In this document: one piece after another, positions 7,676-42,305 of the stretch
Layout: each line of letters opens with the position of its first letter
Position numbering within the stretch: the stretch's first letter is position 1
Source: a virus
Reading direction: 5' to 3' (one strand)
IMG/VR virus record: IMGVR_UViG_3300047576_000060
DNA length: 42,305 bases
The notes under the pieces: model-generated
The model's input: the letters and a program-made list of their open reading frames with translations, nothing else
What the model was told of the DNA's origin: nothing
Databases searched by the model: none
Translations under genes and position numbers: made by a program

Positions 7676-7740
7676 AATTTTCAACGTCTCGTGAGCGTTT
7701 GAGCGGCGCTTTTACGGGACCACAGTAGGAGTTTGCGCTC

Positions 7741-8757: not shown

Positions 8758-8782
8758 AGAGCACGTTCAGGAGTAAAGTCAG

Positions 8783-10150: not shown

Positions 10151-10179
10151 TTTTTTTACACACCCAGAAAGGTTGAGCT

Positions 10180-10503: not shown

Positions 10504-10521
10504 AGCGCTCGCGCGTGAGCC

Positions 10522-13366: not shown

Positions 13367-13776
13367 ACATCGACTTGTCCGCGACCACCGGCTTTAACGA
13401 TACGCAGGGCTTGCGCAATTTCCTGCTCGCGCACCGCTTCGTGCACTTGGAGACCGCGAACGCGTTGAGTGCCAAGTACAACGTACCCTTCTCGACCTTC
13501 GGGCTCGACAGCCAATTGGCCGAGGATGCTTGGGTGCAGGCCATGCAACAGGGCGCGCAGGGGCAAAGGGGCGTCAAACAGCCCGCCTCGCTTCAAGATT
13601 GGCTGAACGTGCATGCGGCCATTCACAATGCGTCGTATAGTCTCTTGGCCGGCCAAGGGGCGGTCGCGCCGGATTTGTCGGTGGTGGATTTCGCCCAAGC
13701 CGATCAGTTCTACGATTGGATGCAAGCGCACCAGGAAATGCACGATTACGAGTACCAGCAGTTGGGGTTGATGTGA
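13363..13776 (+). CDS. Hypothetical protein
   Basis: 137 aa with an ATGA overlap at the start. Confidence 0.6.
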   Translation: MNIDLSATTGFNDTQGLRNFLLAHRFVHLETANALSAKYNVPFSTFGLDSQLAEDAWVQAMQQGAQGQRGVKQPASLQDWLNVHAAIHNASYSLLAGQGAVAPDLSVVDFAQADQFYDWMQAHQEMHDYEYQQLGLM

Positions 13777-14246
13777 GCGCGCAATTAAAACCCATGATCA
13801 GCATTCAGCGCGAGCGCTACTCGGACGCGCTGTGCCAGGAATTACTCCCGCTCCTGCGGGATAACTGGGTGCGCACCGAGAGTTACATCAGTGAGCTTGA
13901 AATCGATCCGGCGTTCAAGAAGTACAAAAAGCTCGATGAGATGGACATGGTCACCTGCATCACGGCGAGGCGCGACGGCGCGCTCGTCGGCTACGCGATT
14001 TTCTTCGACAACTTCTCGCTCCATCACCAGACCGTGCACACGGGCCATGGGGACATGATCTATGTAAAGGACGAGGCAGGCTTGGGGCGCACCGCCTTTC
14101 GCTTGCTGGATGCCGCCGAGGCGCACTTACGGGCCAAGGGCGTGCGCTACATGGGCTGGTTTGTGCGCACGGGGAGCCGCTTTTACATGATCTTGAAGTC
14201 GCGTGGCTACGTCGACGATGAGATCGTGATGGAGAAAAAGTTGTGA
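13773..14246 (+). CDS. GNAT-family N-acetyltransferase-like protein
   Basis: GTG 13773 forms a GTGA overlap (alternative ATG 13794). GALVGYAIFF...GDMIYVKDEAGLGRTAFRLLDAAEAHLRAKGV fits a GNAT motif-A region. Confidence 0.6.
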   Translation: MSAQLKPMISIQRERYSDALCQELLPLLRDNWVRTESYISELEIDPAFKKYKKLDEMDMVTCITARRDGALVGYAIFFDNFSLHHQTVHTGHGDMIYVKDEAGLGRTAFRLLDAAEAHLRAKGVRYMGWFVRTGSRFYMILKSRGYVDDEIVMEKKL

Positions 14247-15652
14247 TACGGCTGCATTTTTTCGAGTGTCCGATAACCGACATTATCGGCGCGATTGTCG
14301 ATGCGGTCGGGGACTCAGCCGCCCTCGATGCGGGCGTGGGAGCCGCTGCGGACGCAGGCGCCGGGGTCGCTGCTGCGGATGTCGGAGCTGGCGCGCTCGC
14401 GGCCGATGCGGGGGCCGATATCGGTGCGGGAGCCTTGGCGGCGGATGCGGGCACGTCGGCGGCGCTGGGCGGCATCGCGGACACCGGGATCGCGGACGCA
14501 GGCGTTGGCACGTTAGGTGATGTGGGCTTCACAGGCGCCGGCACCGGAGCACTCGCCGACACCGGAACCGCAGCGCTAGGGGCAGACAGTGCGTTGGGCG
14601 GCGCGGGGGCGGACACCGCAGCGCTAGGGAGCGGTGGCGCCATCCCGGGAGCCGTCGGTGACGCGGGCGCTGGGGCCATGCTCCCCGAACAGACGGTACT
14701 CGGCCAAGCCGCAGGACCGGCCGCGGCCGGAACCTCGAGCCTGCCCGACGCCTTGGGCGGCATGGTGCTGCCCTCTGCGGTGGCGGCGGGCGCGCCGGGC
14801 GCGGGAGGTTCTGGCGTGCCGGGGGCAAGCGCTCAGCCCGCGGATTTCTCAGGTTCTTTGGCGAGCACCACGCCGACCCAATTTCTGTCGGCGGACGACA
14901 CCGCCCCGTCCTTGCAGAGCTTGGACCCCTCGACCATGCAGGCCCTCGGGATAGACCCCACCGGGGGCTTGAACGACCCGGGCGGCGCGGGCGGGGACTT
15001 TGACCTATCGAATGCGGCAGTGAACCCCTCGGACACCGGCATCGACCCGAACGCCCCGGCGCCGGGTGCGGGGCAAGGCGGCGGCATCGGCTCTTGGCTC
15101 TCGAACCCTAAAAACGCCGCGACTGCGGGCCTCCTAGGTCTCTCGCTCAAGAATGCCTTGACCACGCCAAAACTGCCCGGCGCGGACGCGACCGCCTCAG
15201 CAGCGGCGCAACAGGCCGTCAAGGGCGCGACCTCGGTAGTGCAATCGGGCGGTACCGCGACACCTGAATGGGGCAGCCAAAAGGCGAGCATCGACGCCAC
15301 GATCAACCAGCAGATCCAGCAGCAAACCGAGGCGATCATGCAGGCGGCCGCCTCGAGCGGTGAGGGCAACCAGAATTCAGGCATCGTGCAGCAGCAAATC
15401 GCGCAGATGACGCAAAACGCCAACGTGCAGCGGCAAAACCTCTACGCGCAGGCGCAGCAGCAAAACGTCTCGAACGCGCTCTCGGAGCTTTCGGGCGGCG
15501 ATCAGGTGCTTACCAGCATTGGCAACACGCAGCTCCAGCAAAGCGAGGAGGCGCAGGCACTCGCCGCGCAGACCGCCGAGATGGCGCTCCTACTGCAATC
15601 CGGCGGCTCAATGCGCATCCCCGGTAGCACCGGCATCCCAGGCGGCCCGTGA
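14243..15652 (+). CDS. Internal virion/ejection-type protein with an Ala/Gly/Asp repeat N-terminus and Gln-rich C-terminus
   Basis: 469 aa with a GTGA overlap. Degenerate (A/G)-A-D-x-G repeats span roughly residues 25-150. Confidence 0.55.
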   Translation: MIRLHFFECPITDIIGAIVDAVGDSAALDAGVGAAADAGAGVAAADVGAGALAADAGADIGAGALAADAGTSAALGGIADTGIADAGVGTLGDVGFTGAGTGALADTGTAALGADSALGGAGADTAALGSGGAIPGAVGDAGAGAMLPEQTVLGQAAGPAAAGTSSLPDALGGMVLPSAVAAGAPGAGGSGVPGASAQPADFSGSLASTTPTQFLSADDTAPSLQSLDPSTMQALGIDPTGGLNDPGGAGGDFDLSNAAVNPSDTGIDPNAPAPGAGQGGGIGSWLSNPKNAATAGLLGLSLKNALTTPKLPGADATASAAAQQAVKGATSVVQSGGTATPEWGSQKASIDATINQQIQQQTEAIMQAAASSGEGNQNSGIVQQQIAQMTQNANVQRQNLYAQAQQQNVSNALSELSGGDQVLTSIGNTQLQQSEEAQALAAQTAEMALLLQSGGSMRIPGSTGIPGGP

Positions 15653-16956
15653 GCGTACCCGGCGATCAGTTGGGTGCTGACCGCGCCGCCCTGGTCAAGC
15701 AGGTGGCTGGCATGCCGGGCGGGGACGAGGGCGCGACGCTCGCGGCGAAGCAGGCGGACCTGGCGCCGACCCAGGAGGCGCTACAGCACGCTTACCACGA
15801 CGCAGAATCAGTTAAACCACCAGGGCCGGCCGATCTCCCTCAGGCGCCCAATAAGCCCTTGGTGGACGCCGCTGAGTACCAAAAATTCAGCGGCGCTTTA
15901 GTGGCGATGGCGCTCATTGCGGGCTCGGTCTCGCGCGGCAACTGGTTCGGTGTTTCGCACTCGCTCAATGGCGCGCTCAAGGGCTACATGGAGGGCAACC
16001 AACAAAAGGCGGACGAGGAGTGGAAAAAATACCAGGCGGACTTCACCAAGGCGGTCGACAAGCACAAGGAGCAGCAAGAGGACTACATCGATACCCTCAA
16101 CAACAAAAAGCTCTCGATCAACGGCATCCTCGCGGAATTGCAGACCAAGGCGGCGAAGTGGGATGACCAAGCGCTCTTGGCGAGGACGAGGGCGAAGGAC
16201 CTGGCGGCCGTGCAGAAGCAGATTTATGACATGGATGCCAAGACCGATGAGCTGAAACTGCGCAAGGAGGCGATCGACAACGCGAAGGAGAAGGCGACGG
16301 GCGGCAGCAACCCGGAAACGCAGGCCCTGGAGGCCGCATTCAGCGCTCACGGCGTGACGCTGCCGCAGGGCATGCGCAGTCGCCAGGTGCTTCAGGACAC
16401 GTTAAAGGGGCTCCTAAAGCGCTATCCCGACATGACGCCCGATGAGATCTCGGACGGGGTCAAGACGGGCGCCATCGATATGCGAGTCGCCATGACCGAA
16501 GCCAGCAAGCTCGCCACGCGCGCAGCCTCGATCATGCCGGTCGAGAAGTCGATCGTGCAGCCGGGCGGCTTCTTGGATCAGGCCGAGAAAGCGGTCAACG
16601 CGGTCCACTTCCCCGACTTGAAGAAAGCGGGAGAGTTCAAGAACTGGACCATGGAGCAGACGAGCGATAAGCGTCTTTCCGCCTACAAGACGCGAGTCAC
16701 GGAGCTGCGGCAGGAGTACGCCATCGTGCTCGCGAAAGGCGGCTTGACTTCGGACGCCTCGCGCGCCGAGGCTGAAAAAGTGGTGCCCGACATCATCACG
16801 CCGGGACAGTTCGGTGAGATCGAATCCGCCATCATTCAAGGCATTGAAACCGCCAAGCGCGGCGTGGATGCGAGCATCGATGAGGTAGCAGGGCGCGGCG
16901 CGAGTGGCAAGGTGATCAAGGTCGATGAGAACGGGGTGCCGCTTGCCAATCCTTGA
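15649..16956 (+). CDS. Internal virion/ejection-type coiled-coil protein
   Basis: 435 aa with a GTGA overlap. One hydrophobic segment (FSGALVAMALIAGSV) and a long charged helical region. Confidence 0.55.
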   Translation: MSVPGDQLGADRAALVKQVAGMPGGDEGATLAAKQADLAPTQEALQHAYHDAESVKPPGPADLPQAPNKPLVDAAEYQKFSGALVAMALIAGSVSRGNWFGVSHSLNGALKGYMEGNQQKADEEWKKYQADFTKAVDKHKEQQEDYIDTLNNKKLSINGILAELQTKAAKWDDQALLARTRAKDLAAVQKQIYDMDAKTDELKLRKEAIDNAKEKATGGSNPETQALEAAFSAHGVTLPQGMRSRQVLQDTLKGLLKRYPDMTPDEISDGVKTGAIDMRVAMTEASKLATRAASIMPVEKSIVQPGGFLDQAEKAVNAVHFPDLKKAGEFKNWTMEQTSDKRLSAYKTRVTELRQEYAIVLAKGGLTSDASRAEAEKVVPDIITPGQFGEIESAIIQGIETAKRGVDASIDEVAGRGASGKVIKVDENGVPLANP

Positions 16957-18613
16957 ACTCCCCGACGGCACGCGCCTGTCAGCCCCGGATGGCGCCGATC
17001 CGCGCAAGGTCGTCGCGGGCTACAAGGCGCATCTCGCTGCCAGCCCCCCCAAAAAAACGAGTTCTGATATATCAGAAAGTCCCACGTCAGCCATGAATCT
17101 CGTTGGCGCGGCGGTCGAACCGATGATGTCGATGGCCTCGGGTGCTGTGGCACAACCTATTGCGGGCCTCGCTGGCATCGGTGCGGCGGGTACGAATGCG
17201 ATGGGCATCACGAACACGCCGGCCGCCGATGTCGTCAACAAGGTGCAAGGCTCGATGACTTATCAGCCGCGCACCACCGGCGGGCAGAATGCGATGAGCG
17301 CCTTCACCAGCATTCCGCAGGCGCTGGAGGAGGGTATTACGCGCGACACGCCGGGCTATCACGCTGCACAGCGCTCGCGCATGCCGGGCGCGGGTAATCG
17401 CCCAAGCGGCGACTGGTCGCCCGCCGCGAAAACCGTAGGTACGACGCTGACTCAAGGCGCGCTGCAACTCGCGGGCGCAAAGGGCGGCGCGAAGATGGCG
17501 GAGACGCCTGGGGTACTCAAACCCAAAGGTCCCTCGCCCTCAGTCAAGATGCTCGCCGACAAGGGCGTTACCATGACGCCGGGACAGATCAAAGGCGGTG
17601 CCACTAATGCGATCGAGCAGAAGCTCACGAGCCTACCGATCATCGGCGATGTCATCAAGAGCGCGCGCGGCAAGAGCGTCGAGCAGTTCAGCCAAGCGAC
17701 CGTGCAGGATGCGCTCACCGACATCGGCGAGACCTTGCCCAAGAGTTTGAAGGGGCACGATGCCGTCGCTCACGCGGGCGAGAAATTCAACGAGGCTTAC
17801 GACAAGATACTGCCTAAGCTCAAAGGCGACTTAACCGCAGGGACACAGCCACTAGGGATAGAACTCAACAACATCAAGAGTATGTCGGTGCAAGCGCTTC
17901 CCGCCGAGCAAGGCGCAGCGGTCGCGCGCTTCATCGATCAGGACATCATCGCCAAGTTCAAAAACGGCACCACGGCGAGCGGCGCGGAACTGCAGGAGAT
18001 CCGCGAAAATCTGCGTCATGAGATCGAGTCGTACCAGAAATCGAATGTCCCGGCAGACCGCAAAGTGGCGCTCGCACTCATCACGGCGCGTGAGGCGATG
18101 GATAAGATGATCGAGCAGGTGAATCCCAAGTACGCCGCCGAGTACGCGAAGATTCGCTCAGGCTATGCCAAGTTCTCCATCGCGGAAGCCGCCTCAAGCT
18201 TGAAGGGCGCGAAGGAAGGCGTGGCCACCCCAAGCCAATATACGGGCGCGGTGCGGGCGAAGGATGCATCTAAAAACAAGCGCAGGTTCGCTCAGGGCCG
18301 CGCCAACCAGCAGCCGCTCGCGAAGGCGGGATCGAAGGTGCTCGCAGGGGATGAACCGGACTCCGGCACCGCAGGCCGCGTTGGCATGGCCTCGCTCGTT
18401 ACAGGCGGTGCTGGAGCTGCGGCAGCGCTGCATAACCCACTGTTCCTTGCAGGCGGTGCCATTTTGCCTGCGATGTATAGCCAGATGGGTTTGAAGGCGC
18501 TCCAGCCCTTTCTGATGCGCGGCAAGAATAAGCCCGCTGTCGGCACGGGGGCGGCGCTGGGGCTTGGCACGACCCAGCCAGGAAGCGTCGATGAGAACGG
18601 AGTCGGCCAGTGA
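16925..18613 (+). CDS. Internal virion/ejection-type protein
   Basis: 562 aa with Gly/Ala-rich hydrophobic segments near both ends. The start is uncertain (ATG 16925 or TTG 16943). Confidence 0.55.
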   Translation: MRTGCRLPILELPDGTRLSAPDGADPRKVVAGYKAHLAASPPKKTSSDISESPTSAMNLVGAAVEPMMSMASGAVAQPIAGLAGIGAAGTNAMGITNTPAADVVNKVQGSMTYQPRTTGGQNAMSAFTSIPQALEEGITRDTPGYHAAQRSRMPGAGNRPSGDWSPAAKTVGTTLTQGALQLAGAKGGAKMAETPGVLKPKGPSPSVKMLADKGVTMTPGQIKGGATNAIEQKLTSLPIIGDVIKSARGKSVEQFSQATVQDALTDIGETLPKSLKGHDAVAHAGEKFNEAYDKILPKLKGDLTAGTQPLGIELNNIKSMSVQALPAEQGAAVARFIDQDIIAKFKNGTTASGAELQEIRENLRHEIESYQKSNVPADRKVALALITAREAMDKMIEQVNPKYAAEYAKIRSGYAKFSIAEAASSLKGAKEGVATPSQYTGAVRAKDASKNKRRFAQGRANQQPLAKAGSKVLAGDEPDSGTAGRVGMASLVTGGAGAAAALHNPLFLAGGAILPAMYSQMGLKALQPFLMRGKNKPAVGTGAALGLGTTQPGSVDENGVGQ

Positions 18614-24571: not shown

Positions 24572-25743
24572 TGGCCTCCGTCACCTACAACGGTTTTGCG
24601 GTTGCCACGACGACAAGCGGTTCTAGCTCGCTCGCGTGCAATTCTGCGCTTACCGTCAACACCGGGGATCGGATCGATGTGGTGGTGCAGCTCAACCTCA
24701 TTTATTTGAGTGACCTCAGCGTATCCGATAACCTCGGCAACACCTATGTGTACGCTGGAAGCCAGTTTACCTTCGTCGCCTACACCGCGACCACGATCCC
24801 GACCGCCGCGAGCATCACGGCGGCGGTGGCGGGCTCCTCGACCTTAGTCACCTTCAATAGCGCCGCTGCGAGTAACCCCTTTGCGGTGGGGCAATACCTC
24901 TACTTCACTGCGGCGGGTGGTATCACGGGACTTGATGGCAATATCGGTCAGGTGACCGCGATCGGCGGCGTGACGAGCGCCTGGACCGTGACGGTGAACT
25001 TATCGACGGGCGGCAGCTACACCACCGGCGGCACGGTCTCGGCGTCGAGCATTTTGCTCACCGGCAACTGGGCATACGCCTCCGGCACCTACGAGATGCA
25101 GCTCTCTGCGACCCAGCAGGTGTACGCGACCTTTGTCAACGGCTCGAACGTCGTCACCTGGCCGGGAGGGCTCAGCGCGACGACGACCACGAGCCTCAAA
25201 GTCGCGTACAACTCATCGGCCTATCAATCGCTCGCGTTTTACTACTGTTTGAACGCGATCGGCGGCTCAGCGACGATCACCGCTTCCAACTCCTACTCCG
25301 CCGTGATCATCAACGTGTATGCGCAGAATTTCTCGCCCGTGGGTGCCGTCTGGGGCAGCTTCGCCGGCTTCTCCGCGTTCACGATCGCGACCAACAGCAG
25401 CGTCACCTCGATCAACTCGGGGCTCATCAGCCTGCCGACCGTGCCCGTGCACATGATGGGATTTTGCGCCGATATTCAATCGGGCGCGATCCCTGCCACG
25501 GTCACGGCGGGCTCAGGCTTCACCAGCCGCAACGCCGTGTGGCTCGCGGGCACCGACACGGCCGCCCCGGCGCTCGCGGAGGATCAATACATCACGACCG
25601 GTGCGCCGCAAAGCCTCGCCGCCACATTCGGCGTACCGAGTCAAATTGAGTTTGACACCTTCGTCATGGGCGCGATGGCGTTTAATCTGAACCCGACGCC
25701 GCCGTACGTGTTTTACCGTAAGAACGTTCTGTACTTCATATGA
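24571..25743 (+). CDS. Tail fibre-like protein
   Basis: 390 aa, Thr/Ser/Ala/Gly-rich. TGATG overlap with the upstream stop. Confidence 0.55.
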   Translation: MASVTYNGFAVATTTSGSSSLACNSALTVNTGDRIDVVVQLNLIYLSDLSVSDNLGNTYVYAGSQFTFVAYTATTIPTAASITAAVAGSSTLVTFNSAAASNPFAVGQYLYFTAAGGITGLDGNIGQVTAIGGVTSAWTVTVNLSTGGSYTTGGTVSASSILLTGNWAYASGTYEMQLSATQQVYATFVNGSNVVTWPGGLSATTTTSLKVAYNSSAYQSLAFYYCLNAIGGSATITASNSYSAVIINVYAQNFSPVGAVWGSFAGFSAFTIATNSSVTSINSGLISLPTVPVHMMGFCADIQSGAIPATVTAGSGFTSRNAVWLAGTDTAAPALAEDQYITTGAPQSLAATFGVPSQIEFDTFVMGAMAFNLNPTPPYVFYRKNVLYFI

Positions 25744-25784
25744 TTTATCAACACCGCGAGAGCGGCTTTTAAAAGGAGAGACTT

Positions 25785-26261
25785 ATGGCCGCCAATGGCC
25801 TCATGTACACCGCCTCGTTTTCGAACGTCTCGATTACGAATGCGGCGCAAAATATCTGGGAACTGATCGCAGGGTCCGGTGCATCGGTCCTGATCCATTC
25901 GATCCGCTTGACCATCACGCCGACCATCACCTCAGGCGTCGCCCAGGACGTGCGGGCACTTCTGAACATTCAGAAGATCACCTCCACGGGCACGGGGGGT
26001 ACCGCCAAGACCCCGGCAGCGGTCAATAACCGCAACACGGTGGCTGCGTTACTCACCGCGAATAGCCTGGTGACGACTCCGGGAGCGGCCTCGACCGTGC
26101 TCGACAGTGAGAACGTGTCGATCATTGTGCCGTTCGAGCGTATTTACACGCCCGATCAGCGCTTGCCGATCGCACCGTCTGCGCGTATCGCTGTGAACCT
26201 TTCGGCGGGCTTGGGCGGCGCGTACAACGCTTCTTCGGAAATCTACTTCGAAGAAATCTAA
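25785..26261 (+). CDS. Hypothetical beta-rich structural protein
   Basis: 158 aa with an AAGGAGAG RBS. Confidence 0.6.
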   Translation: MAANGLMYTASFSNVSITNAAQNIWELIAGSGASVLIHSIRLTITPTITSGVAQDVRALLNIQKITSTGTGGTAKTPAAVNNRNTVAALLTANSLVTTPGAASTVLDSENVSIIVPFERIYTPDQRLPIAPSARIAVNLSAGLGGAYNASSEIYFEEI

Positions 26262-26267
26262 TAGGAG

Positions 26268-26286
26268 GGGGGGCGTCAAGCCCCCC
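26268..26286 (+). terminator. GC-rich hairpin (possible attenuator/terminator)
   Basis: GGGGGGC-gtcaa-GCCCCCC, a 7-bp stem, between two tail genes. No U-tract, and it overlaps the RBS region. Confidence 0.2.
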
Positions 26287-26291
26287 GTTCT

Positions 26292-27557
26292 ATGGGTGTG
26301 ATCGTACCGGTCCTGGTCAGCGCGGATACGATCTATCAGCGCGAGGACCACAACAAACGGTTGCTGATGTTCGGCAGGCCGGGGGTTGGGCAATACTATC
26401 CCCTGCAATTCCAGAGCCAGCCGTTGAGCGTGCAGCTCTCGGGGGACCCGTGGCTCGAGCAAGTGCACCGCCCGGCGAGCCCCGAGGCGGCGATCTATCC
26501 GTTCCGCCAGATCAACGTCCAGCAACCGGCGGGCCAGTCGCTATTCTTTCTCACGCCGAAAAGACCGCCGCCTGAATTCTTCTTCGACCGCTTTGCAAGC
26601 GTCTATTCGGTCACCGAGATTGATTCGCAGACCGAAGCCACGTTCGTAAACTCATCGCAGCCCTACCTTGCGTACGCGCAGGCGAAGCGGCCGGGAAATG
26701 CGTTCTTCGAGGATCACAGCCTTGAGACCGGGCAGACCAATCACCCCTATCCGCACGTCACGAAGATCGAGATCGGTTTGTTCCCGTATTCCTTCGAGGT
26801 GCCGGACTTAAACGATAACCCGTGGCTCGAACTCGTTCATAGGCCGCCGAACCCCGAGGCCGCGATCTACCCCTTTAGGCAGATTTATCAAACGGTGCCG
26901 GGACAGCCCTACTCACTTATCGCCTGGCGCTCGCGCAACTGGCCCTTGGAGCCGGAGCCGATTTGGCGCGTGCCCGACACCACGACCTTGAACAGTTTCC
27001 GTCAGATCACGGTTGTGCCCCCGCCGCCGCTTCCCACCACCTGCGTCAATGAATGGAGCGCGGACGGGCGCTTGAACTGGACGGCGGACGGCTACCCCGG
27101 GTGGAGCGCCGACGGGTACGAGCCCACGCCCTTAGAATGCGCGGTGACCTATTTCGCCGAAGTCGGGGTGAATGTCGGCACCTTGACCTACCAATGCTCG
27201 AACGACGGCGTGCCCTTAGGGTGGGTCATCACGGGCTACGTGCCCTATATCAACGTCGCCTACGCGGGGCAATACATCCCCCTGACCATCTCGAACGGGC
27301 CGTGCGTGGGGTCGACTCCCCTCACGGTCCCCAATGTGGTCGGCCTTTTCTACTATGACGCGCAGTTGGCGATTTTGGACGCCGGGTTCCTCATCGGCCC
27401 CCCGATCTGGGCGCTTTCGGGCACCGTGCTCCCGCAGTATGTGATTTCGCAGTCGATACCGGCCGGGACCCTTGTCTCGAACCAAACCCAGATACTGATC
27501 ACCGTCTCGGGTTTCCCCGTGATCAATCAACCGGGTATCATCACCCCAGTGCCATGA
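26292..27557 (+). CDS. Tail protein with an internal duplication and a C-terminal PASTA-like domain
   Basis: 421 aa. A repeat of about 32 aa occurs twice (DPWLE.VHRP..PEAAIYPFRQI). The C-terminal VPNVVGL..DAQLAILDAGFLIG...VISQSIPAGTLVSNQTQILITVSG resembles PASTA. Confidence 0.6.
   Translation: MGVIVPVLVSADTIYQREDHNKRLLMFGRPGVGQYYPLQFQSQPLSVQLSGDPWLEQVHRPASPEAAIYPFRQINVQQPAGQSLFFLTPKRPPPEFFFDRFASVYSVTEIDSQTEATFVNSSQPYLAYAQAKRPGNAFFEDHSLETGQTNHPYPHVTKIEIGLFPYSFEVPDLNDNPWLELVHRPPNPEAAIYPFRQIYQTVPGQPYSLIAWRSRNWPLEPEPIWRVPDTTTLNSFRQITVVPPPPLPTTCVNEWSADGRLNWTADGYPGWSADGYEPTPLECAVTYFAEVGVNVGTLTYQCSNDGVPLGWVITGYVPYINVAYAGQYIPLTISNGPCVGSTPLTVPNVVGLFYYDAQLAILDAGFLIGPPIWALSGTVLPQYVISQSIPAGTLVSNQTQILITVSGFPVINQPGIITPVP
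26442..26537 (+). repeat. Intragenic direct repeat, copy 1
   Basis: Encodes GDPWLEQVHRPASPEAAIYPFRQINVQQPAGQ. Imperfect copy at 26811-26906. Confidence 0.8.
26811..26906 (+). repeat. Intragenic direct repeat, copy 2
   Basis: Encodes NDNPWLELVHRPPNPEAAIYPFRQIYQTVPGQ. Confidence 0.8.
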
Positions 27558-27576
27558 CCGAAAGGATGAACTTGCC

Positions 27577-27807
27577 GTGAGCAAGATGGCGATTCTGATG
27601 TCCCACATGGAAGGGTTCGGGGTGCCGGGCTCAATCCCCACGGTGCGCAATAACCCCCTGGACCTGCGCCACGGGCCGAACGCGAGCCACCCACCGGACG
27701 ATCCGGACGGCATCGGCTACAACCAAATTCAGCTGTGGGCGACCACCACCGCCACCGGCGTCACCGTGGTAGGAACCGCAGGCAATGCCTGGATCGAGTA
27801 CTACTGA
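27577..27807 (+). CDS. Small chimeric ORF, possibly a remnant, ending in a tailspike-like C-terminal motif
   Basis: 76 aa. The last ~28 aa (NQIQLWATTTATGVTVVGTAGNAWIEYY) parallel the tailspike C-terminus (NQITLSATTSVTGAAVGSLGEAWVEYY). Confidence 0.4.
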   Translation: MSKMAILMSHMEGFGVPGSIPTVRNNPLDLRHGPNASHPPDDPDGIGYNQIQLWATTTATGVTVVGTAGNAWIEYY

Positions 27808-27959
27808 TGGACCGATCTTTAGCTTGGCTCTTGACCCTCTTTGGCGTGCTGACCGCCGCGGGGGTGGTGTGGGTGGGCTCGAGCATGGTGGCGCTGCAAG
27901 CGAAAGTCGCCGCAATTGATACCAAGGTCGACTTGCTCATCGAGGGGCACATCAAGTGA
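27807..27959 (+). CDS. Small single-pass membrane protein (holin/antiholin or spanin-like candidate)
   Basis: ATG 27807 forms a TGATG overlap (MDRSLAWLLTLFGVLTAAGVVWVG...). One TMD plus a short helix. Confidence 0.45.
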   Translation: MDRSLAWLLTLFGVLTAAGVVWVGSSMVALQAKVAAIDTKVDLLIEGHIK

Positions 27960-28396
27960 ACTTAGCCTTGCAGCGGCTCTCCGAGAACGCGGTGTGCACC
28001 CAGGGCATCCTTCAGATCCCGGGGCTCACCTTGAAAACCCTCGAACTGCCCTGGGTCCCCGAAAACGGCTTCCCGGGCGGCACGCCGGATAAATCCTGCG
28101 TACCCGCGGGGCTTTACCAGTTGGTGCTGCATGACACCGAAATGCACCCGCGCAGTTTTGCGCTGGTGAACCCTGATTTGGGCGTGATCCATGAGCCCGA
28201 TCCGGCTTTTCCGAACGCGCGTACGGCCTGTTTGATCCATATCGCCAACTACCCGGACGAACTGGAAGGCTGCATCGGTCTAGGCATCACATCGGGGGAT
28301 TGTTTTGTATCGAACAGCGCCAGCGCCGATAGTCAGTTCCGAAGGGCGGTGCCCTGGGTGGCCGGACACACGCTCGATATCTTGCCGCCGCCTTAA
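27956..28396 (+). CDS. DUF5675-family protein, the only endolysin candidate
   Basis: TQGILQI...TLELPW...KSCVPAGLYQL...CLIHIANYPDELEGCIGLG...SNSASA matches the DUF5675 pattern as I recall it. GTGA overlap at the start. Sits at the head of the membrane-protein cluster. Confidence 0.65.
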   Translation: MNLALQRLSENAVCTQGILQIPGLTLKTLELPWVPENGFPGGTPDKSCVPAGLYQLVLHDTEMHPRSFALVNPDLGVIHEPDPAFPNARTACLIHIANYPDELEGCIGLGITSGDCFVSNSASADSQFRRAVPWVAGHTLDILPPP

Positions 28397-28405
28397 GGAG
28401 TTACC

Positions 28406-28600
28406 ATGATTCACACATTGCTTTTGTTGTTCATCATTCTTTGCGTCGTTGGCCTAATAATCTGGGGAATTGGACAAATACCCGGCATCCCGCCCATTTT
28501 GAAAACCGTGATTTACGTCGTGGTCGGTGTCATGCTGCTCTTGTGGGTTTACTCGCAGCTTGCCGGTGGTGGGGGCGGAATGAATCTCTCGCTTAGGTGA
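28406..28600 (+). CDS. Holin candidate (two TMDs)
   Basis: 64 aa with two hydrophobic helices (res 4-22 and 33-50). Locally AT-richer. Confidence 0.55.
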   Translation: MIHTLLLLFIILCVVGLIIWGIGQIPGIPPILKTVIYVVVGVMLLLWVYSQLAGGGGGMNLSLR

Positions 28601-28606
28601 ACTTAA

Positions 28607-28933
28607 ATGAATCAGACACTGCTGACGGCTCTAGTAGGGTCCGGGATCTTGGTCGCACTCGCGCAGTTGATTACGGCCTTGGCGACCTTTATTCGTCAAA
28701 AGGCGAACGCGGTCACTTTGAACACCAAGATCGATGCAAACACCGTGCTCACTGCCGATATCCACAAAGTCACCAATGGCCCGCTATCGGCCATGGGGCA
28801 GAATGTCACCGCTTTAGCCGTGCAAGTGGCATCCAATGCCGCCGAAGCACGCACCACGGCCGAAGCTGCTAAAGTCCAGGCCGCCATCGATGCGAAAGCC
28901 GATCCACCCAAAAGCCTAGGAGATGTCCCGTGA
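28607..28933 (+). CDS. N-terminally anchored membrane protein (i-spanin-like candidate)
   Basis: 108 aa. One N-terminal TMD, then an Ala-rich helical domain. Confidence 0.45.
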   Translation: MNQTLLTALVGSGILVALAQLITALATFIRQKANAVTLNTKIDANTVLTADIHKVTNGPLSAMGQNVTALAVQVASNAAEARTTAEAAKVQAAIDAKADPPKSLGDVP

Positions 28934-29367
28934 TGCGTAAACTTCTTTTGCTGTCTCTTTTGGGCCTGTCATTTCTGACAGGCTGCGCGACCTTGAATGC
29001 CATCTCCTCGACCGTCGCCGTCGCGTTGGCCGACGGGATCGAGTTCGGCACCGCCGAGTACATCAGCCACCACGCCACCGGCGCCCCCGCGCAAACCGCC
29101 CTTGCGGTCAAGATCAAGGCCATCGCCGTCCAGGTGGAGGGCTTCAATAACGGCACCGTCACCGTCGCGCAGATCGAGGCGACCATCGCGGCGGATATCG
29201 CCAAGCTCTCGGTGGCGGACCAGATCTTGGCCAACGGGCTCTTGCAGGAGCTCGTGATAGCGCTCGGCGTGCAGACTCAGAAGGGGCTGATCAGCGCGGC
29301 GGCCTCGGCGGACATCGCGGTGGTCTTAAACGCCGTCATCGCCGCCTGCGGGCTCTACGGGGCGTAA
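28930..29367 (+). CDS. Lipoprotein (o-spanin or u-spanin-like candidate)
   Basis: Signal peptide plus lipobox (MMRKLLLLSLLGLSFLTGC). Hydrophobic C-terminus (IAVVLNAVIAACGLYGA). 4-nt overlap with the upstream gene. Confidence 0.55.
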   Translation: MMRKLLLLSLLGLSFLTGCATLNAISSTVAVALADGIEFGTAEYISHHATGAPAQTALAVKIKAIAVQVEGFNNGTVTVAQIEATIAADIAKLSVADQILANGLLQELVIALGVQTQKGLISAAASADIAVVLNAVIAACGLYGA

Positions 29368-29445
29368 ATGGTCGCCTGGATCGCCCTAGGGATCGCTTTG
29401 CTGGCGCTGCTGATTGCTGTTCTTGGGATCGCCATGGATAGCTAA
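29368..29445 (+). CDS. Possible 25-aa membrane peptide
   Basis: MVAWIALGIALLALLIAVLGIAMDS, starting directly after the upstream TAA. Too short to be confident. Confidence 0.2.
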   Translation: MVAWIALGIALLALLIAVLGIAMDS

Positions 29446-29520
29446 AGTCCTATAGCTTTTTGGCAATTGTCGGTGTCTACTATGCGCTGTCCGACATAAC
29501 CCATTTTTGGAGCTTTCCCC

Positions 29521-29895
29521 ATGTCTACCCCCCTCATCGCCGTCATCGTCGCCATCACCAAGGGGACGAGCATCCCGACACAGACTGGCGCCGCCTTTGC
29601 CTCAACCTCGGTCGTTGTGACCGATTCCTCGGGCGTCGCACAGCCCGCCGTGCTTCTGACCGGCACCGAAACCCCGACCCCGTGGGCGTTCTCGACCTCG
29701 GTCAACCCGGGCGCGGGCACCGTCGTTGCCACCGACCTCGATGCCAATGGAGCGACCTTGGGATCGCCCGTCAGCCAAACCTTTACTGAGGCCGGCACGC
29801 CGCCCGCCTTCCTGCCGACCGCCTCCATCAGCGTGACGCCGGTGCAGCCGCAGGTAGCCGCCGCGGCGAGCAAGAAAGCGAATTTCAAGGCGTAA
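29521..29895 (+). CDS. Hypothetical Thr/Ala/Pro-rich protein
   Basis: 124-aa ORF. Last clear gene of the rightward operon. Confidence 0.55.
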   Translation: MSTPLIAVIVAITKGTSIPTQTGAAFASTSVVVTDSSGVAQPAVLLTGTETPTPWAFSTSVNPGAGTVVATDLDANGATLGSPVSQTFTEAGTPPAFLPTASISVTPVQPQVAAAASKKANFKA

Positions 29896-29900
29896 CGCCC

Positions 29901-30077
29901 ATGGCAGCGCCGTTACCGCCCGGAGCGAGCGACGAGAGTAAGCGACAGTGGCGCATTGAATGTCTGCTTGAGCAGGAGGTCATCCTGCTCAGGCAGATCC
30001 TCGCGCGACTTCCCGCAGCGCCGCAGTATTTCCCCACTACGGGTATCGCGGTCGTCGCAGGCGTGCCGGATTCATAG
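29901..30077 (+). CDS. Possible 58-aa protein
   Basis: MAAPLPPGASDESKRQWRIECLLEQEVILLRQILARL... Below the ORF-track cutoff. Competes with the hairpin interpretation at 29964-29996. Confidence 0.25.
   Translation: MAAPLPPGASDESKRQWRIECLLEQEVILLRQILARLPAAPQYFPTTGIAVVAGVPDS
29964..29996. terminator. Strong hairpin in the convergent junction (possible bidirectional terminator)
   Basis: CTGCTTGAGCAGGA-ggtca-TCCTGCTCAGGCAG, about 14 bp including one G-U pair. No U-tract on either strand. Confidence 0.25.
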
Positions 30078-30102
30078 CTTCTCGCTGGCATCAGAGGCGT
30101 AG

Positions 30103-30321
30103 TCACTCACCGTCGTCATCCCAATAGCTCATCGATTCGTCGGCGGCCGCCACGGGATCGTCAGTTAGATCGATAGGCTCATCCAGGCCGTTGTATTCCG
30201 CGTTGGCTGCGTCTATGGCTTGCTGCCGCGTCCACGGTGATTGCTCTATCATGAGGCGTTCGATGATGCGCAGCTTGAACCGCGCAGCCCATGCCTCGGC
30301 CTCGGGAGGTCGGTACTTCAT
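30103..30321 (-). CDS. Small acidic-tailed hypothetical protein
   Basis: ATG at 30321 with GGAG 9 nt upstream (MKYRPPEAEAW...SYWDDDGE). The ORF track extends to 30357. Confidence 0.5.
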   Translation of the reverse strand: MKYRPPEAEAWAARFKLRIIERLMIEQSPWTRQQAIDAANAEYNGLDEPIDLTDDPVAAADESMSYWDDDGE

Positions 30322-30323
30322 TG

Positions 30324-30518
30324 TTACGCTCCGGGTTTGGATGGGTACTCGACCCATTCAGCATGCAAATTGCTATCGTGGATCGCTACCGAACGCTTCT
30401 CCCAATTGACAGCGACCACAACATATCCACCCTCAGTCTTGATATCGATGCTGCGGGTGATGCCCGCTGTATCAGCGATGATTAGTGGTGTCAGCGTAGA
30501 TCTGAATTCGTAAGTCAT
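30324..30518 (-). CDS. Small hypothetical protein (64 aa)
   Basis: ATGA overlap with the upstream gene (MTYEFRSTLTPLIIADTAG...). This is the 3' part of track ORF 30324-30806. Confidence 0.5.
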   Translation of the reverse strand: MTYEFRSTLTPLIIADTAGITRSIDIKTEGGYVVVAVNWEKRSVAIHDSNLHAEWVEYPSKPGA

Positions 30519-31006
30519 TCGCCACCTTTGGATGTAGCCGGAAAGCCTGGAAGTTTTGGAATCGGCAATAGTGCGCCAACACGCGGCCCGCGCCTGAACT
30601 CCCAGCGATGGCGAGCTTGTACATGCAATCGCTTCAGACCACGAACCACACGCGGATACACTCCTGCATATTCCTCGATGTGCTCGTAGATATCGTCCCA
30701 CACACCGCCCCACAGGAAGCCATCGCAGTTCTCGTAAAGCCAATCCGCCGCGATGTGGCAGTGAGCGCACATTTTCATCTGTTCGATTCGACCGTCGATT
30801 GCCCATTTACTGACGTGATAAGTCTCACCAGGAGCGATGGCGCGAAAGCAGTCCTGACATTTGTGAACCTTTTTGGCTTTGCGCGCCTCGGTTCCGAGCG
30901 GCGTGCCTTCGCCATCTGCATAATCAATCGCGCACATCGGAATCTCCTGCTGAAACGTAGGGGCGAAGCTTTTCCACGCGCGATACTCGTCAGCATCGCA
31001 GTACAC
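30515..31006 (-). CDS. Cys-rich (zinc-ribbon-like) hypothetical protein
   Basis: 163 aa with HKCQDC...CAHC pairs. Confidence 0.6.
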   Translation of the reverse strand: MYCDADEYRAWKSFAPTFQQEIPMCAIDYADGEGTPLGTEARKAKKVHKCQDCFRAIAPGETYHVSKWAIDGRIEQMKMCAHCHIAADWLYENCDGFLWGGVWDDIYEHIEEYAGVYPRVVRGLKRLHVQARHRWEFRRGPRVGALLPIPKLPGFPATSKGGE

Positions 31007-32393: not shown

Positions 32394-32633
32394 TTACAGT
32401 GCTTTCAATCTTTTATCGGGGCTGACGGTACGGGCGCCAACTCGGAGCTTTCCACTTTGTTCTCCTTTGGTTTTCGATTGTGAGCAGCCGAAAAAGTGAA
32501 AACCGCCAACGTCCCCGCCACACTCTTCGCAAGTGCGCGAAAGACCGCGTTTCCTCTGCGCCATTTCCCATCGCATCGCGCGGATATCAACGCAGTCTGC
32601 GCATGAACAATCGGCTGCGTGTTCTTCGGTCAT
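32394..32633 (-). CDS. Small Cys-rich protein
   Basis: ATGA overlap with the methyltransferase stop (MTEEHAADCSCADCVD...TCEECGGDVGGFHFFGC). Confidence 0.5.
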   Translation of the reverse strand: MTEEHAADCSCADCVDIRAMRWEMAQRKRGLSRTCEECGGDVGGFHFFGCSQSKTKGEQSGKLRVGARTVSPDKRLKAL

Positions 32634-33448
32634 ATCGCCATTCCTTCCTGTAGACCTATGCCGTCCTGAAGTGCCGCATAGGCTGGATTGATTTCGCACC
32701 CGATGAAGTTTCGCCCCATCGCTACGGCAACGCGGGCCGTCGTACCGCTCCCCATGAACGGGTCAAATACCGTGTCCCCAGCTCGAGAGCCGACCTCTAC
32801 GCACCTTGCGGCCAATTCGTAGGGAAACGCAGCAGGGTGAACGCCGTCACGGTCCTGGGTTATTTCCCAAACCGAATGGCCCCACCATTTGGCACCAGGC
32901 TGGTGAGCGGTGTAGACCTCGGCATTGCTGAACAAGAAAACGTACTCATGCGAAACCGCAGGGCGATCCAGGCGTGTCGGTTCTACAGCACTCGGCTTTT
33001 GCCAAATGATGGTTGAGCGCAGATACCAGCCATCGGCTCGGAGCGCTTCGGCCACGGCGAAAGACGCCAGAACCAAATCTTTCATCTTGTAGCCCTTGGG
33101 GGGCATCCTAAATCCCTTGCGCTCGCGCACAGTCTCCCAAGCGATGCGGTCGCCAGCATTGCCGCCACCGCCTTTACCGGAAGCCGCATAGGCATCCCCA
33201 ACGTTTAACCAGAAAGTGCCGCCATCGGCGAGTATCGATCGGACACCGCGGCCGACATCAACCACAGCTTTCACATAGTCGGCCGGGTCCCTTTCAAGAC
33301 CCAATTGACCGAGACAACCGTAATCCCGCAGTCCGCCCCAATAAGGCGGCGACGTGACGCAGGTCTGGACCTTAACGCCATCGGCCGCCATAGCCCGCAT
33401 GGCAATGCGGCAGTCCGTCCGATGGGTCTTATTCAGCCAGTGGCTCAC
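32630..33448 (-). CDS. DNA methyltransferase (N6_N4_Mtase family, beta class)
   Basis: TSPPYWGG (motif IV) lies near the N-terminus and FDPFMGSGTTARVA (motif I) near the C-terminus. Confidence 0.85.
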   Translation of the reverse strand: MSHWLNKTHRTDCRIAMRAMAADGVKVQTCVTSPPYWGGLRDYGCLGQLGLERDPADYVKAVVDVGRGVRSILADGGTFWLNVGDAYAASGKGGGGNAGDRIAWETVRERKGFRMPPKGYKMKDLVLASFAVAEALRADGWYLRSTIIWQKPSAVEPTRLDRPAVSHEYVFLFSNAEVYTAHQPGAKWWGHSVWEITQDRDGVHPAAFPYELAARCVEVGSRAGDTVFDPFMGSGTTARVAVAMGRNFIGCEINPAYAALQDGIGLQEGMAI

Positions 33449-33602
33449 AATCCGTTTCCACAGTGGGCGCGTCGTCTATGTCGATCTTGATGACCGGCTT
33501 CGGCAGGATGCCAGCGGCCTGCAAATCGAGACGCAGCAACGCCACTTGCGCCTCGATCTTGTGCATGTCCCGGAATAACTGGGCGAGTGATTGCTTGGTC
33601 AC
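33429..33602 (-). CDS. Small hypothetical protein (57 aa)
   Basis: GTG 33602 forms a GTGA overlap with the upstream methyltransferase stop. Helical (QLFRDMHKIEAQVALLRLDLQ). Confidence 0.35.
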   Translation of the reverse strand: MTKQSLAQLFRDMHKIEAQVALLRLDLQAAGILPKPVIKIDIDDAPTVETDCEPLAE

Positions 33603-34405
33603 TTTCCGTCTCTTTGCGCAGGAAAGCATAGGGAATCTTGAGATATGCGCAGTTCGGCCATTTCGCAATATTGTGGATTTACTTCGATACCGATATATCG
33701 TCGGTCGAGATCCTTGGCCGCCTTGGCCGTGGTTCCGCTTCCCAGGAAAGGATCAAGCACGAGGTCTCCGGGATTGCTCCAAGACGCAATATGATCTCGC
33801 GCTAATGCATCAGGGAACTGCGCAGGGTGTTCGCGCTTTAGATTGCTTTGCTCTGGCGAAATGTTCCAGACATTAAATCTTATTCCGAAGTCATCCATAG
33901 GCTTGGCTTCATGAGTCTTGCGGATCAATTCTCCGCTCGGCAGGCGTAACGAATTGGCTTTTCCGATCTTGCCGGAATAATTGTTTTTCCTGTCACGAAT
34001 TGGGTTAAACGTCTTGGGCCTGCCCTTTGAAAAAACAAACATAAATTCGCTGGAAGGTCCATAACGCACGGATACAGACCCGACGCCCGTAAACGATCCC
34101 TTATTCCAAATCATAGTGTCGTGAAGGCGAAGGCCGAGGCGTTTAAAATGTAGGGCCTGCTCAAGACTTGTACCGCTCTCGCTACCGTTCTCTGTCTGGT
34201 CGCAAACTATCCAAACGATTACGCCACCGGGTTTTAGCGTTCTAGCCAATTGCCACGCAATGCCATAGAAGTCCCACGAATGGCCACCGTATTGCCTTAA
34301 ATCGTCGTATGGCGGCGACGTGAGCACTAGGTCTATAGATTCCCTTGGAATCTTCGCGACCAAATCGCAATTATCGCCGCAGTGGATTTTGTCAATCTTA
34401 AGCAT
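33599..34405 (-). CDS. DNA methyltransferase (N6_N4_Mtase family, beta class), low-GC
   Basis: LTSPPYDD (motif IV) and LDPFLGSGTTAKAA (motif I). Sampled 60-nt lines give about 43-45% GC, against about 55-65% elsewhere. Confidence 0.85.
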   Translation of the reverse strand: MLKIDKIHCGDNCDLVAKIPRESIDLVLTSPPYDDLRQYGGHSWDFYGIAWQLARTLKPGGVIVWIVCDQTENGSESGTSLEQALHFKRLGLRLHDTMIWNKGSFTGVGSVSVRYGPSSEFMFVFSKGRPKTFNPIRDRKNNYSGKIGKANSLRLPSGELIRKTHEAKPMDDFGIRFNVWNISPEQSNLKREHPAQFPDALARDHIASWSNPGDLVLDPFLGSGTTAKAAKDLDRRYIGIEVNPQYCEMAELRISQDSLCFPAQRDGK

Positions 34406-34568
34406 TTGCTGCCTTCAAAGAATTGGCATCGCGCTCGCGTTTCAATCGCAATTCATCGTCCCAATTGTCCGCGACGATGGTTTTAAACTGTTCCGCCGTG
34501 ACGCCAAACTGAATAGCGGATTCCACCGCCCGCGATATGTCGTTGTAAACGACTGATGGGATACTCAT
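34398..34568 (-). CDS. Small hypothetical protein (56 aa)
   Basis: MSIPSVVYNDISRAVESAIQFGVTAEQFKTIVADNWDDELRLKRERD... ATGA-coupled to the upstream ORF, and overlaps the methyltransferase start by 8 nt. Confidence 0.35.
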   Translation of the reverse strand: MSIPSVVYNDISRAVESAIQFGVTAEQFKTIVADNWDDELRLKRERDANSLKAANA

Positions 34569-34732
34569 GGCTTAACTTCCTTTGCAGAGGGAAAGCCATC
34601 ATCAAAAACAATTTTCTGGAAGAATTCCCCGTCTATCTCGATTTGAATTGAATGCATAATTTCACGGTCTGGATAAATTTCCCGATATCTCTTGAGAATC
34701 ATACCGACGATATCTAATGTCTCGTCATCCAT
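34565..34732 (-). CDS. Small hypothetical protein (55 aa)
   Basis: MDDETLDIVGMILKRYREIYPDREIMHSIQIEIDGEFF... Part of a chain of coupled small ORFs. Confidence 0.35.
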   Translation of the reverse strand: MDDETLDIVGMILKRYREIYPDREIMHSIQIEIDGEFFQKIVFDDGFPSAKEVKP

Positions 34733-34850
34733 TCTTACGTGCTGCCAGTAGTCCTGCGAGATAGCCGGCTATGTACGCGGCCATTGGTGGAGGATTGCGC
34801 CCATGCTTTTGGAACCATCGCCAGTTCCAATTGAAGAATTTTTGCTTCAT
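34725..34850 (-). CDS. Possible 41-aa membrane-associated peptide
   Basis: MKQKFFNWNWRWFQKHGRNPPPMAAYIAGYLAGLLAARKNG. ATGA overlap with the Dam-like gene stop. Confidence 0.3.
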   Translation of the reverse strand: MKQKFFNWNWRWFQKHGRNPPPMAAYIAGYLAGLLAARKNG

Positions 34851-35500
34851 GAATCGTCCTCAAGCTTGTGGCCGATCTTGCGCTCGCATTGCGGACACCC
34901 GTTTTGCACTACCTGGCCATGCCCACAATCTTTAACGAAATCTTCGAGTGCTTTCACGTCGGCCAAATATCCGGCATCCATGAGGGGGGCGGGCTGGGCG
35001 CGTAGTTTTATGAATTTACCGATATCCTCAAGCCCACGAAGAACTTCGACATTGGCCGTTCCGTAGGCCACTAGGACATTGGGCGCGGTGCAGCCAGTAT
35101 CGCTAATCTTGCCGCTGACATGGTGGAAAGTCAGACGCCCACGGAGGAATAACACGGCATCCGCTCTACGCCATACCGAATCGAAGAATGCTCGCGTGTC
35201 GGTTCGTGCGATAACCAAGCCGATACCATTTCCATGATCGGCAAGCCGCTGCATCCAAACTCCAATTTTCCTGCCATACGGCGGATTGCACCACACGCGG
35301 CCCTCCCACGGCTTAGCTAGGCCGTTCTCCTCGATGGAGTAGTGGTGTAGGGCGGTCGACCACGGGCGCCTAGAATCGCTTGGGGCGCACGGGTCTAGAT
35401 CGAACTCACCCAGCCGTTTCAACAGCCAGGGAGGCGTAAGCCATTCCTCTTTGGTGGCTATTGCCGACTCGTGAGTACCGATACTAAGTTGCTGCATCAC
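34847..35500 (-). CDS. Phage-type DNA N6-adenine methyltransferase (Dam family) with a C-terminal Cys cluster
   Basis: EEWLTPPWLLKRLGEFDLDPCA...WEGRVWCNPPYG fits the phage Dam pattern. The C-terminus reads CGHGQVVQNGCPQC. Confidence 0.8.
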   Translation of the reverse strand: MMQQLSIGTHESAIATKEEWLTPPWLLKRLGEFDLDPCAPSDSRRPWSTALHHYSIEENGLAKPWEGRVWCNPPYGRKIGVWMQRLADHGNGIGLVIARTDTRAFFDSVWRRADAVLFLRGRLTFHHVSGKISDTGCTAPNVLVAYGTANVEVLRGLEDIGKFIKLRAQPAPLMDAGYLADVKALEDFVKDCGHGQVVQNGCPQCERKIGHKLEDDS

Positions 35501-42280: not shown

Positions 42281-42305
42281 GTACTCTGCGTTGATACCAC
42301 TGCTT
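42281..42305. other. Reverse complement of the same SMART-type primer (library artefact)
   Basis: GTACTCTGCGTTGATACCACTGCTT is the reverse complement of 1-25. Confidence 0.9.

Follow-up and report, generated by a model that had tools for sequence, protein, structure and literature searches.

How does a phage break the wall of its host when its lysis cassette encodes no recognisable lysozyme, amidase or peptidase? The question is raised by the viral record IMGVR_UViG_3300047576_000060, a 42,305-nucleotide (nt) stretch of DNA analysed here as a whole (the window, in whose positions coordinates are given). The genes at 27577-29445 form a tightly coupled lysis cassette at the end of the late operon, and a gene at 27956-28396 encodes a 146-amino-acid (aa) protein of the domain family DUF5675 (Table 1). 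A sequence-only reading of this DNA had called the region a lysis cassette, an interpretation supported here by the coupled genes, their membrane topology and their conserved context. It had also proposed that DUF5675 may be an uncharacterised class of endolysin related to YkuD-type L,D-transpeptidases. Our analysis makes it likely that the DUF5675 protein serves as endolysin of this phage, which has a genome of ~42.3 kb and a Gram-negative host. The new contribution is genomic, and most of all the near-isogenic replacement of a lysin.

The lysozyme-like remnant and the DUF5675 gene

The assignment of the 146-aa protein to DUF5675 (PF18925) is borne out by a Pfam score well above the gathering threshold (52.9 bits against a cut-off of 26.7, E = 3.9e-14, residues 5-132); the protein also matches phrog_1501 (E = 3.9e-15), which has no assigned function. 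Just upstream lies orf76, whose first 48 aa are identical to those of P0141, a full-length relative of 114 aa. Relatives of orf76 are 114-155 aa long and have in common EG[FY]G...IPT.RNNPLDLRH and a helical C-terminal half. The full-length members match phrog_873 'endolysin' (E down to 1.6e-13, covering only a segment of the profile), a tape-measure-protein segment and phrog_7182 'tail injection transglycosylase'; because of the phrog_873 and phrog_7182 matches, they are predicted to carry a lysozyme-like domain. They match no Pfam family, and a Foldseek search of the Protein Data Bank (PDB) with the model of one relative, whose predicted local distance difference test (pLDDT) score is only 70, returned nothing. 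Genes of this family adjoin holin genes, sit in tail modules (L097; L numbers denote the loci compared) or lie beside terminase and portal genes (L089, L093). The window copy lacks the C-terminal 66 residues. The PHROG match of the full-length proteins spans residues 25-105, mostly in the lost part, and the truncated orf76 itself has no match in Pfam or PHROGs.

Comparison with the metagenomic contig L096 shows how this arrangement may have arisen. The contig is 99.86% identical to window positions 25513-27723 (2208/2211 nt) and unrelated from 27721 on, placing a recombination junction at 27720/27721, inside the lysozyme-like gene. On L096 that gene is intact (2065-2409, 114 aa) and is followed by a ribosome-binding site and the start of a holin gene with two transmembrane domains (TMDs). 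Past the junction the window differs: its truncated gene is followed by orf50, DUF5675 and a holin allele. A recombination event thus disrupted the lysozyme-like gene of the window lineage and introduced DUF5675, and at this locus DUF5675 is interchangeable with a recognised lysin. The truncated arrangement is present on 12 contigs, which come from at least six different samples, so the recombinant is a viable lineage that lyses its host. The more distant locus L087 encodes a one-TMD protein, the lysozyme-like protein, a two-TMD holin, small transmembrane proteins and a classic Rz with an embedded Pro-rich Rz1. Since homologues of the two-TMD holin stand beside either enzyme, the same holin family apparently works with either. 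The near-isogenic pair, lysozyme-like lysin against DUF5675 at the same junction, offers a clean and directly testable comparison.

The cassette genes overlap or abut at their stop and start codons (TGATG, GTGA, GTGA, TAAATG) and are therefore translationally coupled; the start of orf50 overlaps the stop of orf76, and its own stop overlaps the DUF5675 start. A promoter and terminator scan of 27000-30600 gave nothing above shuffled expectation, and the cassette DNA matched none of 50,697 phage records.

Is there another lysin in the genome? Open reading frames (ORFs) of at least 90 aa in all six frames (n = 129) matched 19 Pfam families, none of them a glycosidase, amidase or peptidase family. 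A PHROGs scan of the large virion proteins, among them the product of 16925-18613, found no lysin and only weak coiled-coil or Ig-like matches. For ORFs of this size, the earlier statement that the genome has no canonical lysozyme, amidase or peptidase holds at the Pfam and PHROGs level. DUF5675 is supported as the only intact enzyme candidate of the cassette, as had been claimed, although the truncated lysin remnant had been missed.

The muralytic function might nonetheless reside in a virion or internal protein (for example 16925-18613) or in orf76, with DUF5675 an unrelated passenger. An internal virion protein of T7-like phages contains a transglycosylase domain, the large proteins encoded at 14243-18613 have no recognisable domains, and orf76 keeps EGFG...NNPLDLRH, stays open and is translationally coupled. 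We consider this explanation very improbable, given that no SLT, lysozyme or peptidase signal was found in the six-frame ORFs, that virion-associated lysins act at entry and are normally no substitute for an endolysin, that orf76 is so curtailed and matches no family, and that the link of DUF5675 to membrane-protein genes is general.

This generality was seen in 70 non-redundant viral loci, with neighbours assigned by a crude chain-walk. A small TMD protein is encoded at position +1 in 66%, at +2 in 51% and at -1 in 35% of the loci, against 16-21% at -3, -2, +4 and +5. The window pattern, in which TMD and lipoprotein genes flank DUF5675, was found in 58 of the 70, compared with 27 of 70 at distal positions, and classic Rz-like genes come after DUF5675 in two loci (L011, L015). 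Two Mu-like Vibrio phages, martha 12B12 and vB-Vv-ZX4290, have DUF5675 between their late activator and terminase genes. It is the activator's immediate downstream neighbour in ZX4290 and one gene further along in martha, and small ORFs follow; this is the place of the Mu lysis genes (the Mu lys position), and neither genome has an annotated endolysin. Vibrio phage 1.165.O likewise has no annotated lysin, and its DUF5675 gene has TMhelix genes upstream and directly after it. At the other extreme of genome size, a 5.8-kb gut microvirus (Microvirus sp. MT135437.1; L085) has an unannotated 144-aa DUF5675 ORF at 206-640, the end of which is overlapped by a 71-aa membrane or lipobox-like ORF at 588-803. 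This pair is possibly a two-gene lysis system in a single-stranded DNA phage.

DUF5675 is a large family: at E up to 1e-3 the search gave 9,201 representatives of clusters at 50% identity, and most relatives are, like the window protein, single-domain proteins of about 140-165 aa. In a profile search aimed at domain fusions and bridging families, all of the best 120 matches listed were single-domain DUF5675 proteins; the domain is also embedded in virion-size proteins (868 to 1251 aa), one of them from Ralstonia phage RP31. A first scan of a genome collection found no DUF5675 locus and a second only four loci. The genome matches are all in diderm bacteria, namely a Thermoanaerobaculia metagenome-assembled genome (MAG), a Steroidobacteraceae MAG and Psychromonas.

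DUF5675 and the lysozyme-like family are not strictly exclusive alternatives, an idea that we dismissed because three loci carry both. A lysozyme-like gene (~135-148 aa) lies 40 nt upstream of DUF5675 in L049 (9542-10423) and about 1 kb upstream in L060 (8510-10432) and L061 (8500-10438); these contigs of 175-350 kb are probably from jumbo phages. Such neighbours, like the DUF5675 domains within virion-size proteins, associate the family with cell-wall functions.

Separately, in L094 and L095 a single 89-aa gene separates the lysozyme-like gene from a downstream gene (4622-5293) for a protein with a class-3 lipase domain (GHSLG, Pfam E = 2.9e-8), after which come small transmembrane proteins. 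The lipase-domain protein is possibly a lipid-targeting lysis accessory.

Membrane proteins of the cassette

Which proteins would bring such an enzyme to the wall and complete lysis? Hydropathy agrees with the topologies proposed earlier, with one TMD in orf50, two in orf64 and one at the N-terminus of orf108. The TMD of orf50 spans residues 3-30, and its C-terminal motif KVxAxDxKVDLxxxG is common to a 93-aa TMD protein that precedes the lysin in L087. The orf64 gene begins 10 nt after DUF5675, with an AGGAG ribosome-binding site before 28406. Its product is 45% identical to a 69-aa two-TMD protein encoded after the lysozyme-like gene in L087, with a protein of the same type in L096, and 27% identical to a two-TMD protein encoded directly upstream of DUF5675 in L016. 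Set against a class II holin, orf64 has 64 aa, two TMDs, a position next to DUF5675 and a C-terminus with a single basic residue; no Pfam holin family matched it above noise.

The two genes that follow, orf108 and orf145, most likely encode a two-component spanin, as judged from topology, lipobox and gene order. A protein with an N-terminal TMD (residues 3-30; 21% Ala) is paired with a lipobox lipoprotein, the orf108 stop overlaps the orf145 start by 4 nt, and helicity is suggested by composition. Together the two products amount to 253 aa, where a typical two-component spanin totals about 250 aa. The lipoprotein (LLTG|C) is 21% Ala, with a mature part of 126 aa, one Cys near the C-terminus and no Pro-rich stretch. 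Pairs of a TMD protein and a lipoprotein recur after DUF5675 in L001, L008, L014, L016 and L021, and the lipoproteins are 113-155 aa long in L001, L008, L014 and L021. The L016 lipoprotein, at the same position, is 41% identical to orf145 and is its only match in Pfam, PHROGs, the phage records and the viral contigs.

The sequence-only reading had called the lipoprotein atypical for an o-spanin and had considered a unimolecular-spanin-like role. The first remark is apt insofar as the protein is long, Ala-rich and without a Pro-rich stretch; the T4 o-spanin family also has no Pro-rich region, and a two-component o-spanin remains preferred. The second found no support. The C-terminal 27 residues of orf145 are moderately hydrophobic (Kyte-Doolittle (KD) value 1.98) and include Asp and Asn, the L016 homologue ends ...IMNDVISACNLYIPTAT, which is not TMD-like, a partner gene for an N-terminal TMD protein overlaps the lipoprotein gene, and such pairs recur. 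As the C-terminal segment is not convincingly a TMD, the unimolecular reading is ranked lower. A 25-aa peptide had also been listed as a possible member of the cassette: the ORF exists and is hydrophobic, but it was not called by the Joint Genome Institute (JGI) and there is no room for it in L016, so it is doubtful as a gene.

In content and order the arrangement resembles a lambda-type holin-endolysin-spanin cassette: small membrane proteins, a soluble enzyme, an N-terminal TMD protein and a lipoprotein gene that overlaps its neighbour come together where the late operon ends. It differs in that the enzyme is not a glycosidase, amidase or known peptidase, in the long, Ala-rich lipoprotein lacking a Pro-rich stretch, and in the presence of an extra upstream one-TMD protein and a truncated lysin remnant.

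DUF5675 and the L,D-transpeptidase fold

What chemistry might the DUF5675 protein perform? Its conserved motif is LIH-x9-GCIGLG (H95...G105-C106), with nine intervening residues by our count and not the ten read earlier. Across 78 family sequences, down to 26% identity, E30, G52, Y54, H95, N98, G105 and C106 are invariant, as is R89 upstream of the motif, and His95 and Cys106 are proposed as candidate catalytic residues of a Cys-His enzyme. When each of the 78 members was scanned against Pfam at a permissive threshold, sub-threshold matches to Tlde1_dom recurred in 17 (best E = 1.4e-3) and one member matched YkuD (E = 7e-4), while other families recurred in at most three; the window protein itself had no match to PF03734 or PF10908. 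The AlphaFold2 (AF2) model of the 146-aa protein is confident (pLDDT 95.8) and mostly beta. A Foldseek search of BFVD with this model returned DUF5675 proteins together with a crAss-like protein named 'L,D-carboxypeptidase/transpeptidase', a name carried in UniProt.

Two enzyme families invite comparison. Tlde1a (Pfam Tlde1_dom PF10908, PDB 7UMA), an L,D-transpeptidase-fold carboxypeptidase/exchange enzyme with catalytic H121 and C131 (PMC9638812), is likewise a small stand-alone Cys-His enzyme, acting on peptidoglycan stems. Its His and Cys lie 10 residues apart against 11 in DUF5675 (H95/C106), and Tlde1_dom is the only Pfam family with recurrent weak DUF5675 matches. It differs in its SHGC motif, where DUF5675 has L-x-GC, and in being a type VI secretion effector passed between bacteria rather than a phage lysin; the DUF5675 matches to it are all sub-threshold, with no Foldseek or PDB-sequence match. 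The YkuD/ErfK family (PF03734, MEROPS C82) also has a His ahead of a Gly-Cys nucleophile; compared with its motif H-x(n)-[ST]-x-G-C-[IV]-R, DUF5675 has a corresponding His and G-C-I (H95 and G105-C106-I107, invariant or nearly so) and lacks the [ST] and the Arg, its His-Cys spacing is shorter by five residues, with Tlde1a also on the short side, and no Foldseek match was obtained. YkuD is a rare catalytic-domain class among phage lytic proteins, with 10 recorded in PhaLP. A distant kinship of DUF5675 with the L,D-transpeptidase fold is likely but tentative. The YkuD link proposed earlier is thus weakly supported: the His and Cys are invariant and the family-wide matches lean towards Tlde1_dom and YkuD, while a profile alignment was insignificant and the structure search of the PDB that had been suggested, run with the pLDDT 96 model, found no match to solved structures, among them those of the ErfK/YbiS/YcfS/YnhG beta-sandwich fold.

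Several points weigh against the proposed endolysin and lysis mechanism. Foldseek of the model against 350,542 PDB chains gave no match (best E = 0.93, TM-score below 0.2) in a library where the YkuD, Csd6 and Tlde1a structures should be present, and searching the PDB by sequence and by profile, with the protein itself, two family profiles and three distant members as queries, turned up nothing relevant. In hhalign against a four-sequence YkuD alignment rebuilt from PDB hits, H95 and C106 pair with the YkuD His and Cys over only 13-19 columns at a non-significant probability below 1.2%; a home-made YkuD hidden Markov model returned only noise among DUF5675 members. The Arg that follows the Cys in YkuD (GC[IV]R) is absent. 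Characterised hydrolases of this fold, such as Tlde1a, are carboxypeptidases that alone cannot dissolve the sacculus, so endopeptidase action of DUF5675 is an assumption, and the searchable literature yielded no DUF5675 protein that has been tested biochemically or genetically. Most virion proteins have no Pfam match at all and could hide a highly divergent lysin domain; in so divergent a phage, where even the likely terminase and portal go unmatched, an absent match is not proof of absence. The o-spanin candidate, finally, is unusually long and without a Pro-rich region.

Part of this evidence would suit a different division of labour, in which DUF5675 is an accessory peptidoglycan-modifying enzyme, either a tetrapeptide-trimming L,D-carboxypeptidase or one that releases Braun lipoprotein in the manner of DpaA, and the wall is broken otherwise. 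Tlde1a is a carboxypeptidase/exchange enzyme and not an endopeptidase, the small lysozyme-like gene beside DUF5675 in the three jumbo-phage loci suggests a second-enzyme role, and the mostly unannotatable structural proteins leave space for a hidden lysin. Yet in the window the lysozyme-like gene is down to 48 conserved residues, nothing else is lysin-like and the lineage is still widespread, and the Mu-like phages and the 5.8-kb microvirus have DUF5675 with no other lysin annotated or visible. We regard an accessory role as unlikely, although the strongest of the alternatives.

A function apart from the cell wall, such as an anti-defence protein or a regulatory protease in a coincidental cassette position, would sit well with the lack of a PDB fold match, the sub-threshold similarities and the lack of experiments. 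The consistent position in unrelated phage lineages, the substitution for a lysin gene, the occurrence of DUF5675 as a domain of very large virion-type proteins and the peptidoglycan enzymes as its sole recurrent remote similarity all speak against it, and we give it the smallest chance of all, marginally below that of the virion-protein or remnant lysin.

With the DUF5675 protein taken as the endolysin, a lytic pathway can be outlined, in which we infer the muralytic activity, the bond specificity and the roles of holin and spanin. Lacking a signal sequence, the protein would build up in the cytoplasm as a soluble cysteine enzyme until holes made by the two-TMD holin candidate gave it access to the cell wall, a step that the 50-aa TMD protein may modulate. 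It would then cut peptidoglycan peptide stems with Cys106 as nucleophile and His95 as general base. The enzyme would most probably attack the L,D bond after meso-diaminopimelate (meso-DAP), given its proposed distant kinship to the L,D-transpeptidase fold (YkuD, Tlde1; MEROPS C82); hydrolysis of that bond in a cross-linked donor stem would sever the cross-link. The N-terminal TMD protein and the lipoprotein would then act on the outer membrane as a two-component spanin. The module itself would have come by recombination, replacing the 3' half of an ancestral lysozyme-like gene together with its holin allele.

The functional idea has precedents, and the novelty claimed for it earlier was overstated. 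A 2026 preprint classes DUF5675 (LysPd160) as a 'C82-like' lysin family from predicted structures (bioRxiv 10.64898/2026.04.11.717860), and the crAss-like homologue name and the PhaLP YkuD class also precede this work. The preprint shares the idea, and the window protein is a clear DUF5675 member; the searched text of the preprint gives no activity assay for LysPd160. Our support differs in being genomic, and our own Foldseek search gave no match to solved L,D-transpeptidase structures. A wider and more tentative proposition, to which we give rather less than an even chance, is that DUF5675 represents an endolysin class with a new mechanism. Its members would be cysteine hydrolases of the L,D-transpeptidase fold on which many phages, ranging from tailed phages to microviruses, rely alone for wall degradation. 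They would sever cross-links by way of an acyl-enzyme at the L-centre of meso-DAP, and in the window the enzyme would be paired with an unusual long helical lipoprotein spanin. If so, DUF5675 might be as sensitive to carbapenems or copper as L,D-transpeptidases are. An endolysin role for DUF5675 would in itself explain many seemingly lysin-less genomes, including those of Mu-like vibriophages, some microviruses and many environmental phages, and would add a cysteine-based, L,D-bond-directed catalytic domain to the few endolysin chemistries at hand for enzybiotic engineering.

Molecule ends and neighbouring genes

Table 1. Features of the cassette and the following gene in the 42,305-nt window.
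Feature	Coordinates	Strand	Basis
orf76, N-terminal remnant (residues 1-48) of a lysozyme-like gene	27577..27807	+	identity to full-length P0141
orf50, one N-terminal TMD and a short C-terminal helix motif; possible holin partner or antiholin	27807..27959	+	hydropathy
146-aa soluble DUF5675 protein, no signal peptide or TMD; proposed endolysin	27956..28396	+	Pfam PF18925
orf64, two TMDs; holin candidate	28406..28600	+	hydropathy, homologues
orf108, N-terminal TMD and Ala-rich periplasmic domain; i-spanin candidate	28607..28933	+	hydropathy, overlap with lipoprotein gene
orf145 lipoprotein, lipobox LLTG|C, Ala at +2; o-spanin candidate	28930..29367	+	lipobox, composition
25-aa ORF, hydrophobic throughout; doubtful gene	29368..29445	+	ORF list, hydropathy
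124-aa Thr/Ala/Pro-rich protein, possibly Ig-like, among the last genes of the rightward operon	29521..29895	+	conserved with lipoprotein in L016

All ORFs listed in the sequence-only reading are present in the window at the positions given there. Inverted copies of the 25-nt oligonucleotide AAGCAGTGGTATCAACGCAGAGTAC, which we take to be a SMART-type polymerase chain reaction (PCR) or amplification primer, lie at both ends (1-25 and 42281-42305), and no terminal direct repeat was found inside these adapters. The core between them measures 42,255 bp, the same as a JGI contig with the same genes. From the terminal copies and the matching core, the window ends are probably library adapters and the window one whole amplified molecule and complete genome. 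The independent JGI gene calls for the cassette and the gene after it agree with ours, at 76, 50, 146, 64, 108, 144 and 124 aa.

The 124-aa product is 53% identical to that of the gene after the lipoprotein in L016 (11215-11538), and the equivalently placed gene in L001 (7396-7722) carries a He_PIG (Ig-like) domain; across the window, L016 and L001 these Thr/Ala/Pro-rich proteins are ~107-124 aa long. A 58-aa gene called by JGI comes next.

Elsewhere in the window, the region 1537-11391, with the likely terminase (1537-3390), the likely portal (4329-6011) and the capsid genes, had no Pfam match at E < 0.01, and PHROGs detected a major head protein there only at E = 9.5e-22. A GNAT acetyltransferase gene (13716-14246; Pfam E = 3.8e-6, phrog_1249) lies amid the genes for large virion or internal proteins. 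On the minus strand, 32630-35500 holds three consecutive DNA methyltransferase genes; two are N6_N4_Mtase genes, and the third is Dam-like and may encode a C-terminal zinc finger. Ahead of the cassette, the last protein of the tail or fibre type (26292-27557, 421 aa) has a PASTA domain at its end (residues 345-406, E = 5.8e-9). Modules of this kind bind peptidoglycan or beta-lactams and are uncommon in phage tail proteins; the equivalent proteins of L096 and L097 have one as well.

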